38,432 bases of DNA from Escherichia phage T7. The notes under the pieces were generated by a model, which made no database searches, was not told the origin of the DNA, and worked only from the letters and a program-made list of their open reading frames with translations. The position numbers were made by a program, and so were the translations under genes. Of this stretch, positions 16,027 to 25,721 are shown in pieces; the first letter of the stretch is position 1; each line of letters begins with the position of its first letter. The DNA lies in sequence record PV223882; one strand, given 5' to 3'.

Positions 16027-16290
16027 GTGGAAGACTGCATTGAATGGACCGGAGGTGTCAACTCTAAGGGTTATGGTCGTAAGTGGGTTAATGGTAAACT
16101 TGTGACTCCACATAGGCACATCTATGAGGAGACATATGGTCCAGTTCCAACAGGAATTGTGGTGATGCATATCTGCGATAACCCTAGGTGCTATAACATA
16201 AAGCACCTTACGCTTGGAACTCCAAAGGATAATTCCGAGGACATGGTTACCAAAGGTAGACAGGCTAAAGGAGAGGAACTAAGCAAGTAA
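16027..16290 (+). pseudogene. 7.7: Gene 7.7 (HNH endonuclease-like), truncated by the LysK cassette insertion
   Basis: GTG-start ORF with HNH motif HICDNPRCYNIKHL ends at ...GEELSK; the stop codon is supplied by the first TAA of the inserted promoter. Confidence 0.8.
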
Positions 16291-16310
16291 TACGACTCAC
16301 TATAGGCCTC
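16288..16310 (+). promoter_or_regulatory. Inserted T7 promoter (pET-style, lac operator absent) driving the LysK cassette
   Basis: taatacgactcactatagg followed by cctctagaaataattttgtttaactttaagaaggagatatacatATG; leader and RBS identical to the native gene 10 leader. Confidence 0.9.
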
Positions 16311-16350
16311 TAGAAATAATTTTGTTTAACTTTAAGAAGGAGATATACAT

Positions 16351-17874
16351 ATGGGCAGCAGCCATCATCATCATCATCACAGCAGCGGCGCTAAGACTCA
16401 AGCAGAAATAAATAAACGTTTAGACGCTTATGCAAAAGGTACAGTAGACAGTCCTTATAGAATTAAAAAAGCTACAAGCTATGACCCATCGTTTGGTGTA
16501 ATGGAAGCAGGAGCAATTGACGCAGATGGTTACTATCATGCACAGTGCCAAGACTTAATTACTGATTATGTATTATGGTTAACAGATAATAAAGTTAGAA
16601 CTTGGGGTAATGCTAAAGACCAAATCAAACAAAGTTATGGTACTGGATTTAAAATACATGAAAATAAACCTTCTACAGTACCTAAAAAAGGATGGATTGC
16701 TGTATTTACATCCGGTAGTTATCAGCAATGGGGTCACATAGGTATTGTATATGATGGAGGTAATACTTCTACATTTACTATTTTAGAGCAAAACTGGAAC
16801 GGTTACGCTAATAAAAAACCTACAAAACGTGTAGATAATTATTACGGATTAACTCATTTTATTGAGATACCTGTAAAAGCAGGAACTACTGTTAAAAAAG
16901 AAACAGCTAAGAAAAGTGCAAGTAAAACACCTGCACCTAAAAAGAAAGCAACACTAAAAGTTTCTAAGAACCATATTAACTATACAATGGATAAACGTGG
17001 TAAGAAACCTGAAGGAATGGTAATACACAACGATGCAGGTCGTTCTTCAGGGCAACAATACGAGAATTCATTAGCTAACGCAGGTTATGCTAGATATGCT
17101 AATGGTATTGCTCATTACTATGGCTCTGAAGGTTATGTATGGGAAGCAATAGATGCTAAGAATCAAATTGCTTGGCACACAGGAGATGGAACAGGAGCAA
17201 ACTCAGGTAACTTTAGATTTGCAGGTATTGAAGTCTGTCAATCAATGAGTGCTAGTGATGCTCAATTCCTTAAAAACGAACAAGCAGTATTCCAATTTAC
17301 TGCAGAGAAATTTAAAGAATGGGGTCTTACTCCTAATCGTAAAACTGTAAGATTGCATATGGAATTTGTTCCAACAGCTTGTCCTCATCGTTCTATGGTT
17401 CTTCATACAGGATTTAATCCAGTAACACAAGGAAGACCATCTCAAGCAATAATGAATAAACTAAAAGATTATTTCATTAAACAAATTAAAAACTACATGG
17501 ATAAAGGAACTTCAAGTTCTACAGTAGTTAAAGACGGTAAAACAAGTAGCGCAAGTACACCGGCAACTAGACCAGTAACAGGCTCTTGGAAAAAGAACCA
17601 GTACGGAACTTGGTACAAACCGGAAAATGCAACATTTGTTAATGGTAACCAACCTATAGTAACTAGAATAGGTTCTCCATTCTTAAATGCTCCAGTAGGA
17701 GGTAACTTACCGGCAGGAGCTACAATTGTATATGACGAAGTTTGTATCCAAGCAGGTCACATTTGGATAGGTTACAATGCTTACAATGGTGACAGAGTAT
17801 ATTGCCCTGTTAGAACTTGTCAAGGAGTTCCACCTAATCATATACCTGGGGTTGCCTGGGGAGTATTCAAATAG
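16351..17874 (+). CDS. lysK: Heterologous N-terminally His6-tagged staphylococcal phage endolysin (LysK of phage K; CHAP, amidase_2 and SH3b domains)
   Basis: [13 protein letters not shown] tag then [33 protein letters not shown]... recognised as LysK; CHAP Cys in ...YHAQCQDL; AT-rich native codons. Confidence 0.88.
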
Positions 17875-19615: not shown

Positions 19616-20539
19616 ATGGCTGAATCTAATGCAGACGTATATGCATCTTTTGGCGTGAACTCCGCTGTGATGTCTGGTGGTTCCGTTGAGGAACATGAGC
19701 AGAACATGCTGGCTCTTGATGTTGCTGCCCGTGATGGCGATGATGCAATCGAGTTAGCGTCAGACGAAGTGGAAACAGAACGTGACCTGTATGACAACTC
19801 TGACCCGTTCGGTCAAGAGGATGACGAAGGCCGCATTCAGGTTCGTATCGGTGATGGCTCTGAGCCGACCGATGTGGACACTGGAGAAGAAGGCGTTGAG
19901 GGCACCGAAGGTTCCGAAGAGTTTACCCCACTGGGCGAGACTCCAGAAGAACTGGTAGCTGCCTCTGAGCAACTTGGTGAGCACGAAGAGGGCTTCCAAG
20001 AGATGATTAACATTGCTGCTGAGCGTGGCATGAGTGTCGAGACCATTGAGGCTATCCAGCGTGAGTACGAGGAGAACGAAGAGTTGTCCGCCGAGTCCTA
20101 CGCTAAGCTGGCTGAAATTGGCTACACGAAGGCTTTCATTGACTCGTATATCCGTGGTCAAGAAGCTCTGGTGGAGCAGTACGTAAACAGTGTCATTGAG
20201 TACGCTGGTGGTCGTGAACGTTTTGATGCACTGTATAACCACCTTGAGACGCACAACCCTGAGGCTGCACAGTCGCTGGATAATGCGTTGACCAATCGTG
20301 ACTTAGCGACCGTTAAGGCTATCATCAACTTGGCTGGTGAGTCTCGCGCTAAGGCGTTCGGTCGTAAGCCAACTCGTAGTGTGACTAATCGTGCTATTCC
20401 GGCTAAACCTCAGGCTACCAAGCGTGAAGGCTTTGCGGACAGTAGCGAGATGATTAAAGCTATGAGTGACCCTCGGTATCGCACAGATGCCAACTATCGT
20501 CGTCAAGTCGAACAGAAAGTAATCGATTCGAACTTCTGA
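19616..20539 (+). CDS. 9: Capsid assembly (scaffolding) protein gp9
   Basis: 307-aa acidic ORF MAESNADVYASFGVNSAVMSGG... Confidence 0.96.
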   Translation: MAESNADVYASFGVNSAVMSGGSVEEHEQNMLALDVAARDGDDAIELASDEVETERDLYDNSDPFGQEDDEGRIQVRIGDGSEPTDVDTGEEGVEGTEGSEEFTPLGETPEELVAASEQLGEHEEGFQEMINIAAERGMSVETIEAIQREYEENEELSAESYAKLAEIGYTKAFIDSYIRGQEALVEQYVNSVIEYAGGRERFDALYNHLETHNPEAAQSLDNALTNRDLATVKAIINLAGESRAKAFGRKPTRSVTNRAIPAKPQATKREGFADSSEMIKAMSDPRYRTDANYRRQVEQKVIDSNF

Positions 20540-20552
20540 TAGACTTCGAAAT

Positions 20553-20575
20553 TAATACGACTCACTATAGGGAGA
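20553..20575 (+). promoter_or_regulatory. T7 class III promoter phi10 with native gene 10 leader
   Basis: taatacgactcactatagggagaccacaacggtttccctctagaaataattttgtttaactttaagaaggagatatacatATG. Confidence 0.95.
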
Positions 20576-20632
20576 CCACAACGGTTTCCCTCTAGAAATA
20601 ATTTTGTTTAACTTTAAGAAGGAGATATACAT

Positions 20633-21670
20633 ATGGCTAGCATGACTGGTGGACAGCAAATGGGTACTAACCAAGGTAAAGGTGTAGTTGCTGCTGGAGA
20701 TAAACTGGCGTTGTTCTTGAAGGTATTTGGCGGTGAAGTCCTGACTGCGTTCGCTCGTACCTCCGTGACCACTTCTCGCCACATGGTACGTTCCATCTCC
20801 AGCGGTAAATCCGCTCAGTTCCCTGTTCTGGGTCGCACTCAGGCAGCGTATCTGGCTCCGGGCGAGAACCTCGACGATAAACGTAAGGACATCAAACACA
20901 CCGAGAAGGTAATCACCATTGACGGTCTCCTGACGGCTGACGTTCTGATTTATGATATTGAGGACGCGATGAACCACTACGACGTTCGCTCTGAGTATAC
21001 CTCTCAGTTGGGTGAATCTCTGGCGATGGCTGCGGATGGTGCGGTTCTGGCTGAGATTGCCGGTCTGTGTAACGTGGAAAGCAAATATAATGAGAACATC
21101 GAGGGCTTAGGTACTGCTACCGTAATTGAGACCACTCAGAACAAGGCCGCACTTACCGACCAAGTTGCGCTGGGTAAGGAGATTATTGCGGCTCTGACTA
21201 AGGCTCGTGCGGCTCTGACCAAGAACTATGTTCCGGCTGCTGACCGTGTGTTCTACTGTGACCCAGATAGCTACTCTGCGATTCTGGCAGCACTGATGCC
21301 GAACGCAGCAAACTACGCTGCTCTGATTGACCCTGAGAAGGGTTCTATCCGCAACGTTATGGGCTTTGAGGTTGTAGAAGTTCCGCACCTCACCGCTGGT
21401 GGTGCTGGTACCGCTCGTGAGGGCACTACTGGTCAGAAGCACGTCTTCCCTGCCAATAAAGGTGAGGGTAATGTCAAGGTTGCTAAGGACAACGTTATCG
21501 GCCTGTTCATGCACCGCTCTGCGGTAGGTACTGTTAAGCTGCGTGACTTGGCTCTGGAGCGCGCTCGCCGTGCTAACTTCCAAGCGGACCAGATTATCGC
21601 TAAGTACGCAATGGGCCACGGTGGTCTTCGCCCAGAAGCTGCTGGTGCAGTGGTTTTCAAAGTGGAGTAA
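20633..21670 (+). CDS. 10A: Major capsid protein gp10A
   Basis: 345-aa ORF MASMTGGQQMG... (T7-tag N-terminus) ending ...AVVFKVE*. Confidence 0.98.
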   Translation: MASMTGGQQMGTNQGKGVVAAGDKLALFLKVFGGEVLTAFARTSVTTSRHMVRSISSGKSAQFPVLGRTQAAYLAPGENLDDKRKDIKHTEKVITIDGLLTADVLIYDIEDAMNHYDVRSEYTSQLGESLAMAADGAVLAEIAGLCNVESKYNENIEGLGTATVIETTQNKAALTDQVALGKEIIAALTKARAALTKNYVPAADRVFYCDPDSYSAILAALMPNAANYAALIDPEKGSIRNVMGFEVVEVPHLTAGGAGTAREGTTGQKHVFPANKGEGNVKVAKDNVIGLFMHRSAVGTVKLRDLALERARRANFQADQIIAKYAMGHGGLRPEAAGAVVFKVE

Positions 21671-21693
21671 TAATACGACTCACTATAGGCCTC
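21671..21693 (+). promoter_or_regulatory. Inserted T7 promoter (pET-style, no lac operator) driving the second lysin cassette
   Basis: Identical to the 16288 element: taatacgactcactataggcctctagaaataattttgtttaactttaagaaggagatatacat. Confidence 0.9.
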
Positions 21694-21733
21694 TAGAAAT
21701 AATTTTGTTTAACTTTAAGAAGGAGATATACAT

Positions 21734-22498
21734 ATGACAACAGTAAATGAAGCATTAAATAATGTAAGAGCTCAGGTTGGGTCCGGTGTGTCTGTTGGCA
21801 ACGGCGAATGCTACGCTTTGGCTAGTTGGTACGAGCGCATGATTAGTCCGGATGCAACTGTCGGACTTGGCGCTGGTGTGGGCTGGGTCAGCGGTGCAAT
21901 CGGCGATACAATCTCTGCCAAAAACATCGGCTCATCATACAACTGGCAAGCTAACGGCTGGACAGTTTCCACATCTGGTCCATTTAAAGCAGGTCAGATT
22001 GTGACGCTTGGGGCAACACCAGGAAACCCTTACGGACATGTGGTAATCGTCGAAGCAGTGGACGGCGATAGATTGACTATTTTGGAGCAAAACTACGGCG
22101 GGAAACGTTATCCCGTCCGTAATTATTACAGCGCTGCAAGCTATCGTCAACAGGTCGTGCATTACATCACACCGCCTGGCACGGTCGCACAGTCAGCACC
22201 CAACCTTGCAGGCTCTCGTTCCTATCGCGAGACGGGCACTATGACTGTCACGGTCGATGCTCTCAATGTTCGCAGGGCGCCAAATACTTCAGGCGAGATT
22301 GTAGCAGTATACAAGCGTGGTGAATCATTTGACTATGATACTGTCATCATCGATGTCAATGGCTATGTCTGGGTGTCTTACATAGGCGGCAGCGGCAAAC
22401 GTAACTACGTTGCGACGGGCGCTACCAAAGACGGTAAGCGTTTCGGCAATGCTTGGGGTACATTTAAAGGCAGCAGCCATCATCATCATCATCACTAG
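21734..22498 (+). CDS. plySs2: Heterologous C-terminally His6-tagged CHAP-SH3b streptococcal lysin (PlySs2-like)
   Basis: MTTVNEALNNVRAQVGSGVSVGNGECYALASWYERMISPD... recognised as PlySs2 from S. suis; ends ...[13 protein letters not shown]. Confidence 0.8.
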   Translation: MTTVNEALNNVRAQVGSGVSVGNGECYALASWYERMISPDATVGLGAGVGWVSGAIGDTISAKNIGSSYNWQANGWTVSTSGPFKAGQIVTLGATPGNPYGHVVIVEAVDGDRLTILEQNYGGKRYPVRNYYSAASYRQQVVHYITPPGTVAQSAPNLAGSRSYRETGTMTVTVDALNVRRAPNTSGEIVAVYKRGESFDYDTVIIDVNGYVWVSYIGGSGKRNYVATGATKDGKRFGNAWGTFKGSSHHHHHH

Positions 22499-22656
22499 CT
22501 GCTGGGGGTGGCCTCAACGGTCGCTGCTAGTCCCGAAGAGGCGAGTGTTACTTCAACAGAAGAAACCTTAACGCCAGCACAGAAGGCCGCACGCACCCGC
22601 GCTGCTAACAAAGCCCGAAAGGAAGCTGAGTTGACTGCTGCCACCGCTGAGCAATA
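22499..22656 (+). other. Untranslated remnant of the gene 10B C-terminal extension region
   Basis: Sequence that in wild-type T7 encodes the frameshift-dependent 10B tail now lies downstream of the cassette stop. Confidence 0.75.
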
Positions 22657-22704
22657 ACTAGCATAACCCCTTGGGGCCTCTAAACGGGTCTTGAGGGGTT
22701 TTTT
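22657..22704 (+). terminator. T7 RNAP terminator Tphi
   Basis: ctagcataaccccttggggcctctaaacgggtcttgaggggttttttg. Confidence 0.95.
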
Positions 22705-22722
22705 GCTGAAAGGAGGAACTAT

Positions 22723-23336: not shown

Positions 23337-25721
23337 ATGGCACTCATTAGCCAATCAATCAAGAACTTGAAGGGTGGTATCAGCCAACAGCCTGACATCC
23401 TTCGTTATCCAGACCAAGGGTCACGCCAAGTTAACGGTTGGTCTTCGGAGACCGAGGGCCTCCAAAAGCGTCCACCTCTTGTTTTCTTAAATACACTTGG
23501 AGACAACGGTGCGTTAGGTCAAGCTCCGTACATCCACCTGATTAACCGAGATGAGCACGAACAGTATTACGCTGTGTTCACTGGTAGCGGAATCCGAGTG
23601 TTCGACCTTTCTGGTAACGAGAAGCAAGTTAGGTATCCTAACGGTTCCAACTACATCAAGACCGCTAATCCACGTAACGACCTGCGAATGGTTACTGTAG
23701 CAGACTATACGTTCATCGTTAACCGTAACGTTGTTGCACAGAAGAACACAAAGTCTGTCAACTTACCGAATTACAACCCTAATCAAGACGGATTGATTAA
23801 CGTTCGTGGTGGTCAGTATGGTAGGGAACTAATTGTACACATTAACGGTAAAGACGTTGCGAAGTATAAGATACCAGATGGTAGTCAACCTGAACACGTA
23901 AACAATACGGATGCCCAATGGTTAGCTGAAGAGTTAGCCAAGCAGATGCGCACTAACTTGTCTGATTGGACTGTAAATGTAGGGCAAGGGTTCATCCATG
24001 TGACCGCACCTAGTGGTCAACAGATTGACTCCTTCACGACTAAAGATGGCTACGCAGACCAGTTGATTAACCCTGTGACCCACTACGCTCAGTCGTTCTC
24101 TAAGCTGCCACCTAATGCTCCTAACGGCTACATGGTGAAAATCGTAGGGGACGCCTCTAAGTCTGCCGACCAGTATTACGTTCGGTATGACGCTGAGCGG
24201 AAAGTTTGGACTGAGACTTTAGGTTGGAACACTGAGGACCAAGTTCTATGGGAAACCATGCCACACGCTCTTGTGCGAGCCGCTGACGGTAATTTCGACT
24301 TCAAGTGGCTTGAGTGGTCTCCTAAGTCTTGTGGTGACGTTGACACCAACCCTTGGCCTTCTTTTGTTGGTTCAAGTATTAACGATGTGTTCTTCTTCCG
24401 TAACCGCTTAGGATTCCTTAGTGGGGAGAACATCATATTGAGTCGTACAGCCAAATACTTCAACTTCTACCCTGCGTCCATTGCGAACCTTAGTGATGAC
24501 GACCCTATAGACGTAGCTGTGAGTACCAACCGAATAGCAATCCTTAAGTACGCCGTTCCGTTCTCAGAAGAGTTACTCATCTGGTCCGATGAAGCACAAT
24601 TCGTCCTGACTGCCTCGGGTACTCTCACATCTAAGTCGGTTGAGTTGAACCTAACGACCCAGTTTGACGTACAGGACCGAGCGAGACCTTTTGGGATTGG
24701 GCGTAATGTCTACTTTGCTAGTCCGAGGTCCAGCTTCACGTCCATCCACAGGTACTACGCTGTGCAGGATGTCAGTTCCGTTAAGAATGCTGAGGACATT
24801 ACATCACACGTTCCTAACTACATCCCTAATGGTGTGTTCAGTATTTGCGGAAGTGGTACGGAAAACTTCTGTTCGGTACTATCTCACGGGGACCCTAGTA
24901 AAATCTTCATGTACAAATTCCTGTACCTGAACGAAGAGTTAAGGCAACAGTCGTGGTCTCATTGGGACTTTGGGGAAAACGTACAGGTTCTAGCTTGTCA
25001 GAGTATCAGCTCAGATATGTATGTGATTCTTCGCAATGAGTTCAATACGTTCCTAGCTAGAATCTCTTTCACTAAGAACGCCATTGACTTACAGGGAGAA
25101 CCCTATCGTGCCTTTATGGACATGAAGATTCGATACACGATTCCTAGTGGAACATACAACGATGACACATTCACTACCTCTATTCATATTCCAACAATTT
25201 ATGGTGCAAACTTCGGGAGGGGCAAAATCACTGTATTGGAGCCTGATGGTAAGATAACCGTGTTTGAGCAACCTACGGCTGGGTGGAATAGCGACCCTTG
25301 GCTGAGACTCAGCGGTAACTTGGAGGGACGCATGGTGTACATTGGGTTCAACATTAACTTCGTATATGAGTTCTCTAAGTTCCTCATCAAGCAGACTGCC
25401 GACGACGGGTCTACCTCCACGGAAGACATTGGGCGCTTACAGTTACGCCGAGCGTGGGTTAACTACGAGAACTCTGGTACGTTTGACATTTATGTTGAGA
25501 ACCAATCGTCTAACTGGAAGTACACAATGACTGGTGCCCGATTAGGCTCTAACACTCTGAGGGCTGGGAGACTGAACTTAGGGACCGGACAATATCGATT
25601 CCCTGTGGTTGGTAACGCCAAGTTCAACACTGTATACATCTTGTCAGATGAGACTACCCCTCTGAACATCATTGGGTGTGGCTGGGAAGGTAACTACTTA
25701 CGGAGAAGTTCCGGTATTTAA
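23337..25721 (+). CDS. 12: Tail tubular protein B gp12
   Basis: 794-aa ORF MALISQSIKNLKGGISQQPDILRYPDQG... Confidence 0.96.
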   Translation: MALISQSIKNLKGGISQQPDILRYPDQGSRQVNGWSSETEGLQKRPPLVFLNTLGDNGALGQAPYIHLINRDEHEQYYAVFTGSGIRVFDLSGNEKQVRYPNGSNYIKTANPRNDLRMVTVADYTFIVNRNVVAQKNTKSVNLPNYNPNQDGLINVRGGQYGRELIVHINGKDVAKYKIPDGSQPEHVNNTDAQWLAEELAKQMRTNLSDWTVNVGQGFIHVTAPSGQQIDSFTTKDGYADQLINPVTHYAQSFSKLPPNAPNGYMVKIVGDASKSADQYYVRYDAERKVWTETLGWNTEDQVLWETMPHALVRAADGNFDFKWLEWSPKSCGDVDTNPWPSFVGSSINDVFFFRNRLGFLSGENIILSRTAKYFNFYPASIANLSDDDPIDVAVSTNRIAILKYAVPFSEELLIWSDEAQFVLTASGTLTSKSVELNLTTQFDVQDRARPFGIGRNVYFASPRSSFTSIHRYYAVQDVSSVKNAEDITSHVPNYIPNGVFSICGSGTENFCSVLSHGDPSKIFMYKFLYLNEELRQQSWSHWDFGENVQVLACQSISSDMYVILRNEFNTFLARISFTKNAIDLQGEPYRAFMDMKIRYTIPSGTYNDDTFTTSIHIPTIYGANFGRGKITVLEPDGKITVFEQPTAGWNSDPWLRLSGNLEGRMVYIGFNINFVYEFSKFLIKQTADDGSTSTEDIGRLQLRRAWVNYENSGTFDIYVENQSSNWKYTMTGARLGSNTLRAGRLNLGTGQYRFPVVGNAKFNTVYILSDETTPLNIIGCGWEGNYLRRSSGI

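Follow-up and report, generated by a model that had tools for sequence, protein, structure and literature searches.

The window, the whole 38,432-bp stretch of DNA that was analysed, carries an 829-bp insert (21671..22499) directly behind gene 10A. The insert, the genes and elements that flank it and the sister cassette described below all lie on the + strand. Alignment with NC_001604 and with the engineered phage T7-B-J shows a seamless insertion at wild-type T7 position 24004/24005, base 24004 being the final base of the 10A stop codon. Of the four parts of the insert, a T7 promoter comes first, followed by a shortened gene-10/pET leader and a 245-codon lysin ORF; the last is a GSS-His6 tag with its TAG stop and a single additional C. 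A sequence-only reading had proposed a synthetic cassette of T7 promoter and gene 10 leader at 21671-22498, inserted immediately after the 10A stop and ahead of the retained 10B tail and Tphi terminator. Its synthetic character is confirmed by the match of leader and tag to pET-28a and to deposited engineered records, and its placement by the alignment with NC_001604; the start is exact, and the end moves by one base to the extra C at 22499.

Insert boundaries and expression elements

Gene 10A (20633..21670), encoding the 345-aa major capsid protein, is identical to the wild type at the DNA level. It ends in AAAGTGGAGTAA, with its TAA stop (21668..21670) abutting the insert. The native phi10 promoter and gene-10 leader (20553..20635; annotated as phi10 in NC_001604) precede and drive 10A, and the final 47 nt of this leader (20589..20635) recur in both lysin cassettes of the window.

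The inserted T7 RNA polymerase promoter, TAATACGACTCACTATAGG (21671..21689; +1 G at 21688), is followed by the gene-10/pET leader CCTCTAGAAATAATTTTGTTTAACTTTAAGAAGGAGATATACAT (21690..21733), which comprises an XbaI site, the TTAACTTTA enhancer and the Shine-Dalgarno sequence AAGGAG (21720..21725). This order, a T7 class III promoter core followed by gene-10 leader and Shine-Dalgarno, is that of a pET-type cassette. Apart from the ATG context, the 47-nt cassette leader is the same as that of native phi10 and of pET-28a. Both inserted promoters initiate with GGCCTC, the class III consensus being GGGAGA, so that positions +3 to +6 are non-consensus. Both are also without the native phi10 5' stem-loop (GGGAGACCACAACGGTTTCCC). 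Judged from these two features, promoter strength and mRNA stability may be lower than for phi10.

Comparison with the T7lac region of pET-28a reveals a common T7 promoter core, XbaI/gene-10 leader, Shine-Dalgarno and GGCAGCAGCCATCATCATCATCATCAC tag DNA. The cassette differs from the vector in four respects: the 25-nt lac operator (GGAATTGTGAGCGGATAACAATTCC) is absent, the NcoI CCATGG has become an NdeI-type CATATG, the tag is shifted to the C-terminus, and the vector T7 terminator is missing, its role being served by native Tphi. The cassette derives from the pET design but does not amount to a complete pET unit. The pET-28a reference used was the pET-28a sequence in PLSDB, where it is present as a contaminant 'plasmid'. 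Small PLSDB 'plasmids' assigned to Mucilaginibacter, Ruficoccus and Aeromonas match the cassette leader and tag; the segment inspected (CP014772.1, 1614..1855, Mucilaginibacter) is a pET-28a T7lac/His-tag/T7-tag multiple cloning site, and those records look like laboratory vector contamination of assemblies.

At the distal end, the GSS-His6 tag (22469..22495) is closed by a TAG stop (22496..22498). Its 27 nt of DNA are identical to the N-terminal tag DNA of the sister cassette (16354..16380) and to pET-28a. The extra C (22499..22499), the last base of the 829-bp insert, brings the orphaned 10B C-terminal tail (22500..22657; T7 24005..24162) into the reading frame of the lysin, past its amber codon. 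This tail, which has two substitutions relative to NC_001604 (22583 and 22634), now serves the lysin mRNA as a 3' UTR. In an amber-suppressor host, and only there, some of the lysin molecules would be 54 residues longer, the addition being the suppressor-inserted residue and 53 aa (codons 22499..22657) that begin LLGVAS and end in the 10B tail. The native Tphi hairpin and T-run (22665..22706; annotated as Tphi in NC_001604) form the sole terminator downstream of the cassette. The insert itself holds no terminator, and no strong terminator lies between phi10 and the cassette.

The insertion also alters the second reading frame of the capsid gene. The heptamer GGTTTTC at 21652, the established 10A/10B -1 frameshift site of T7, now opens a short -1 frame (21652..21696) that reads GFQSGVIIRLTIGL and halts after 14 codons at a TAG (21694..21696) in the cassette XbaI site. 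As predicted from these frames, the insertion abolishes the 398-aa minor capsid protein 10B, which cannot be made because the -1 frame stops at this TAG. 10B is dispensable in T7, which fits the viability of the phage. It is annotated in NC_001604 as a joined CDS. The depositors label the 345-aa 10A CDS 'gp10B' in PV223880 and PV223883; a true 10B requires the frameshift plus the tail, and in this phage the cassette separates the two.

The 10A/10B junction is the classical T7 display site, and 10B display is mentioned in the source paper of the construct (PMC12153263), both of which would suit a T7Select-type design with the lysin fused to 10A/10B on the virion. Against such capsid display, the 10A TAA stop is kept, the -1 frame meets its TAG within the cassette leader, the junction contains no in-frame 10A or 10B fusion, and the lysin possesses its own promoter, Shine-Dalgarno and ATG. 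Free His-tagged protein was, moreover, purified from lysate (PMC12153263). We reject capsid display on the retained stop, the -1 frame TAG and the independent expression signals, and consider it extremely improbable.

Identity and origin of the lysin

The lysin ORF (21734..22498) encodes 254 aa and ends in GGCAGCAGC(CAT/CAC)x6 TAG, which translates as GSSHHHHHH and the stop. Its first 245 codons (21734..22468) constitute the PlySs2 (CF-301) coding sequence in native S. suis codons, not codon-optimised, and over all 735 nt this DNA matches the lysin gene of Streptococcus phage phi891591 (S. suis 89/1591; KC348602) at 100% identity. Exact-sequence lookup identified residues 1-245 as AGF87539.1 / WP_002937838.1, named 'PlySs2 family phage lysin', and PlySs2 is reported to be phi891591 AGF87539.1 (PMC7558826). 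Among 50,697 phage records, the 8-9 other natural matches show 78-98% identity, and every one of them is an S. suis prophage. The protein cluster has 183 members, of which the named members read are all S. suis.

CF-301 is PlySs2, with an N-terminal CHAP and a C-terminal SH3b domain (PMC3982849), and this architecture is recovered in the window. Pfam CHAP scores 44.5 bits (gathering cutoff 26; 2.3e-11) at about aa 21-120 (nt 21794..22093), and Pfam SH3_5 scores 33.3 bits (gathering cutoff 22; 5e-8) over a core at aa 179-227 (nt 22268..22414). The solved SH3b construct spans aa 147-245, across which PDB 9kz1 is identical to the lysin; the SH3b domains of lysostaphin and ALE-1 also match. The active site of CF-301 consists of Cys26, His102, Glu118 and Asn120 (PMC3982849), and C26, H102, E118 and N120 are all present in the lysin translation. 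The NCBIfam scan of the lysin returned sub-threshold matches only (ScrM, 57.7 bits versus a cutoff of 400); NCBIfam is without a 'PlySs2 family' HMM, and the name must therefore stem from an identity rule. The PlySs2 literature drawn on comprises PMC7558826, PMC3982849 and PMC5207509.

The sequence-only reading had described a C-terminally His6-tagged CHAP-SH3b lysin of 254 aa with catalytic Cys and His motifs, PlySs2-like and derived from an S. suis prophage. The ORF end and the two Pfam domains bear out the former description, and the motifs are in place at Cys 26 and His 102. The assignment to PlySs2 proves stronger than had been claimed: judged by its sequence, the ORF is PlySs2 itself plus GSSHHHHHH, not a mere relative.

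This identity bears on the provenance given by the depositors. The annotation of PV223883 reads 'endolysin; LyJDSS3; from a Streptococcus agalactiae phage', and PMC12153263 likewise calls the gene LyJDSS3 and ascribes it to an S. agalactiae phage. On that wording, 'LyJDSS3' could have been recovered independently from an S. agalactiae phage and coincide with PlySs2, which, if true, would imply a very recent exchange of prophage lysis modules between S. suis and S. agalactiae. Such an origin is very unlikely, since the S. suis 89/1591 prophage matches the gene at all 735 nt and the other natural matches and the named cluster members read are confined to S. suis; in none of the S. agalactiae phages among the 50,697 phage records was a copy of the gene detected. 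Further points against it are that the name 'LyJDSS3' or 'JDSS3' appears, in the literature searched, in PMC12153263 alone, that the reference cited there for both lysins is the LysGH15 paper and covers LysGH15 only, and that the gene was chemically synthesized (PMC12153263).

By sequence comparison, the depositors' provenance is in conflict with the databases, in which the close relatives are all S. suis prophages, and the GenBank provenance note is probably wrong. On the simplest reading, 'S. agalactiae' denotes the intended target or is an error, and the synthesized sequence is S. suis PlySs2. T7-B-J kills co-cultured S. agalactiae (ATCC 13813) and also inhibits S. aureus (ATCC 25923), a cross-activity that its authors describe as a lack of exclusive specificity (PMC12153263); inhibition of S. 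aureus is to be expected because the payload is PlySs2/CF-301. By its sequence, the payload deposited as 'LyJDSS3' is PlySs2/CF-301, a clinical-stage lysin of S. suis origin.

A published genome-reduced T7 with two lysin cassettes

The insert is almost certainly the 'PT7-lyJDSS3' payload of T7-B-GJ, a synthetic phage already described (GenBank PV223882; mBio 2025;16(6):e03582-24, PMC12153263), and no observation speaks against this. Table S1 of that paper lists the double construct T7-B-GJ as PV223882. Megablast retrieved the GenBank series 'Mutant Escherichia phage T7 clone recombinant', which includes T7-B (PV223880, 36016 bp), T7-B-G (PV223881, 37603 bp) and T7-B-J (PV223883, 36845 bp). Once 16288..17874 and 21671..22499 are removed, the window equals T7-B base for base, and the lengths of T7-B and the two inserts account for the whole (36016 + 1587 + 829 = 38432 bp). 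T7-B-J contains the PlySs2 cassette at 100% identity throughout. The cassette is not a product of chance, because it matches deposited engineered sequences exactly.

The source paper introduces the SMART method and, as chassis, a T7-B genome reduced by 9.8%, in which a 1.6-kb PT7-lysGH15 cassette was placed in the gp7.7 locus and a 0.8-kb PT7-lyJDSS3 cassette in the gp10 locus, the site of highest reporter expression (PMC12153263). Both lysin genes were synthesized commercially; the His tag is N-terminal on the lysGH15 product and C-terminal (6xHis) on the lyJDSS3 product, and the inserts were stable across 10 transfers (PMC12153263).

The sister cassette (16288..17874) contains the same 63-bp promoter/leader, an N-terminal tag and lysGH15. 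Positions 21671..21733 are identical to 16288..16350, a match that extends to 66 bp when the ATG is counted. The earlier claim that the same element precedes LysK holds for the element and fails for the gene, which is lysGH15 (100% DNA identity to HM015284 and JQ686190); LysGH15 is a close LysK-type relative, not LysK. The accompanying statement that this coliphage carries two Gram-positive lysins is upheld, the pair being PlySs2 and LysGH15. The sister cassette replaces T7 20109..20208 in gene 7.7 (HNH endonuclease), where the chassis deletion amounts to only 100 bp. An 87-aa N-terminal gp7.7 remnant is still encoded (window 16027..16290) and ends at the TAA that opens the inserted T7 promoter.

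Direct repeats arise from the two cassettes: a 66-nt sequence and the 27 nt of tag DNA are each present twice, and 47 nt also occur in the phi10 leader. All deletions mediated by these repeats would remove gene 8, 9 or 10A, a cost that probably contributes to the reported stability of the inserts.

Natural horizontal transfer, in which T7 or a T7-like coliphage gained a streptococcal prophage lysin as a 'moron', would account for the native S. suis codons and the 100% identity to a natural prophage gene. It is contradicted by the His6 tag DNA identical to pET-28a, by a duplicated 66-bp promoter/leader from which the lac operator is precisely excised, by the seamless junctions, by the presence of a second tagged lysin cassette, and by a backbone that exactly matches both the deposited 'recombinant' T7 series and the published construction (PMC12153263). 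Tag, vector sequence and construction record together refute natural transfer and leave it a vanishingly small probability. The PlySs2 cassette in T7 is man-made and was already published in 2025; it holds no new biology, and in genome scans the window should be flagged as synthetic and left out of discovery statistics.

Several further features of the chassis were noted. The deletion named 'gp0.4-gp0.7' (T7 ~1259..2739) removes 1481 bp, which is not divisible by three, and starts inside gene 0.3. In the window (925..1320, junction near 1258/1259), the six C-terminal residues of Ocr (YEEDEE) are replaced by 20 aa read in a shifted frame, giving an ORF of 131 aa versus 117; gene 0.3 is not annotated in the T7-B GenBank record. 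This junction adjoins a 12-nt natural repeat (GGAAGTCGAGGA) common to genes 0.3 and 0.7. The deletion junctions at genes 1.7, 3.8 and 4.3-4.7 (6553..6561, 9088..9095 and 10788..10814) sit in short stretches of 9, 8 and 27 nt, respectively, each of which occurs twice in wild-type T7, and the exact end-points of these deletions are ambiguous for that reason. Point differences from NC_001604, all inherited from T7-B, occur at 20441, 22583, 22634, 22733 and 22841 and at ten further positions, to 35904. The chassis substitutions comprise R276S in gp9, E>K and A>T in the 10B tail, Y4C and A40V in gp11, and about ten more in genes 12-19. These differences probably reflect the laboratory's T7 stock.

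Proposed mode of action and known systems

Comparison with wild-type T7 shows that genes 1 (RNA polymerase), 8 and 10A and the lysis genes 3.5, 17.5, 18.5 and 18.7 are unchanged. During infection of E. coli, the phage-encoded T7 RNA polymerase would transcribe the lysin ORF, with transcripts starting at the inserted promoter (+1 21688) and probably also reading through from phi10, phi9 and other upstream late promoters. From the anatomy of the locus, these transcripts are expected to end at native Tphi. The gene-10 leader and Shine-Dalgarno would support strong translation, and PlySs2 (CF-301) carrying GSS-His6 at its C-terminus is the predicted product. Having no signal peptide, the lysin would accumulate in the cytoplasm until the T7 holin, lysozyme and spanins, the genes of which are intact, lyse the cell and release it. 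The SH3b domain would then bind Gram-positive walls and the CHAP domain, through its four catalytic residues (C26, H102, E118 and N120), would cleave peptidoglycan, so that the freed lysin could kill bystanders outside the host range of T7, namely streptococci and staphylococci.

The product, release and killing steps have been shown experimentally: lysin was produced, His-tagged lysin was purified out of infected-culture lysate and resolved as protein bands by SDS-PAGE, and killing was observed in co-culture (PMC12153263). The published construct demonstrates that bystander bacteria can be killed by Gram-positive lysins delivered from a T7 of reduced genome size.

The closest known systems are the engineered phages T7-B-J (PV223883) and T7-B-GJ (PV223882, its sequence as reconstructed from PV223880, PV223881 and PV223883), which have the same cassette, insertion site and backbone as the window, with no difference detected. 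At the level of the protein, PlySs2/CF-301 (exebacase; AGF87539.1) is identical to the payload in residues 1-245, DNA, CHAP-SH3b architecture and catalytic residues, and its reported spectrum covers S. aureus, S. pyogenes and S. agalactiae (PMC3982849). The payload differs from it in that GSSHHHHHH is added at the C-terminus and in that no plasmid is used for expression, the gene being carried by a lytic coliphage and expressed while the phage infects its host. A full-length homologue of solved structure, with the same CHAP-SH3b fold, is the Ly7917-type S. suis lysin (PDB 5d74). It aligns to payload aa 1-245 with E = 6.5e-150, and the phage gene is ~82% identical at the DNA level. It represents a distinct allele that is reported to be active on streptococci only, not on staphylococci.

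In its design, the window corresponds to an engineered payload ('heterologous effector') phage, with an intact lytic backbone and an effector gene directly behind 10A. The report on heterologous-effector phage therapeutics (HEPTs; Nat Commun 2023, PMC10359290) presents the same concept, a lytic phage with a payload behind the major capsid gene, the effector being a bacteriocin or cell-wall hydrolase that is freed at host lysis and kills bystanders. Compared with these HEPTs, the phage in the window has a genome-reduced T7 as its chassis, carries two Gram-positive lysins, and provides each payload with its own T7 promoter.
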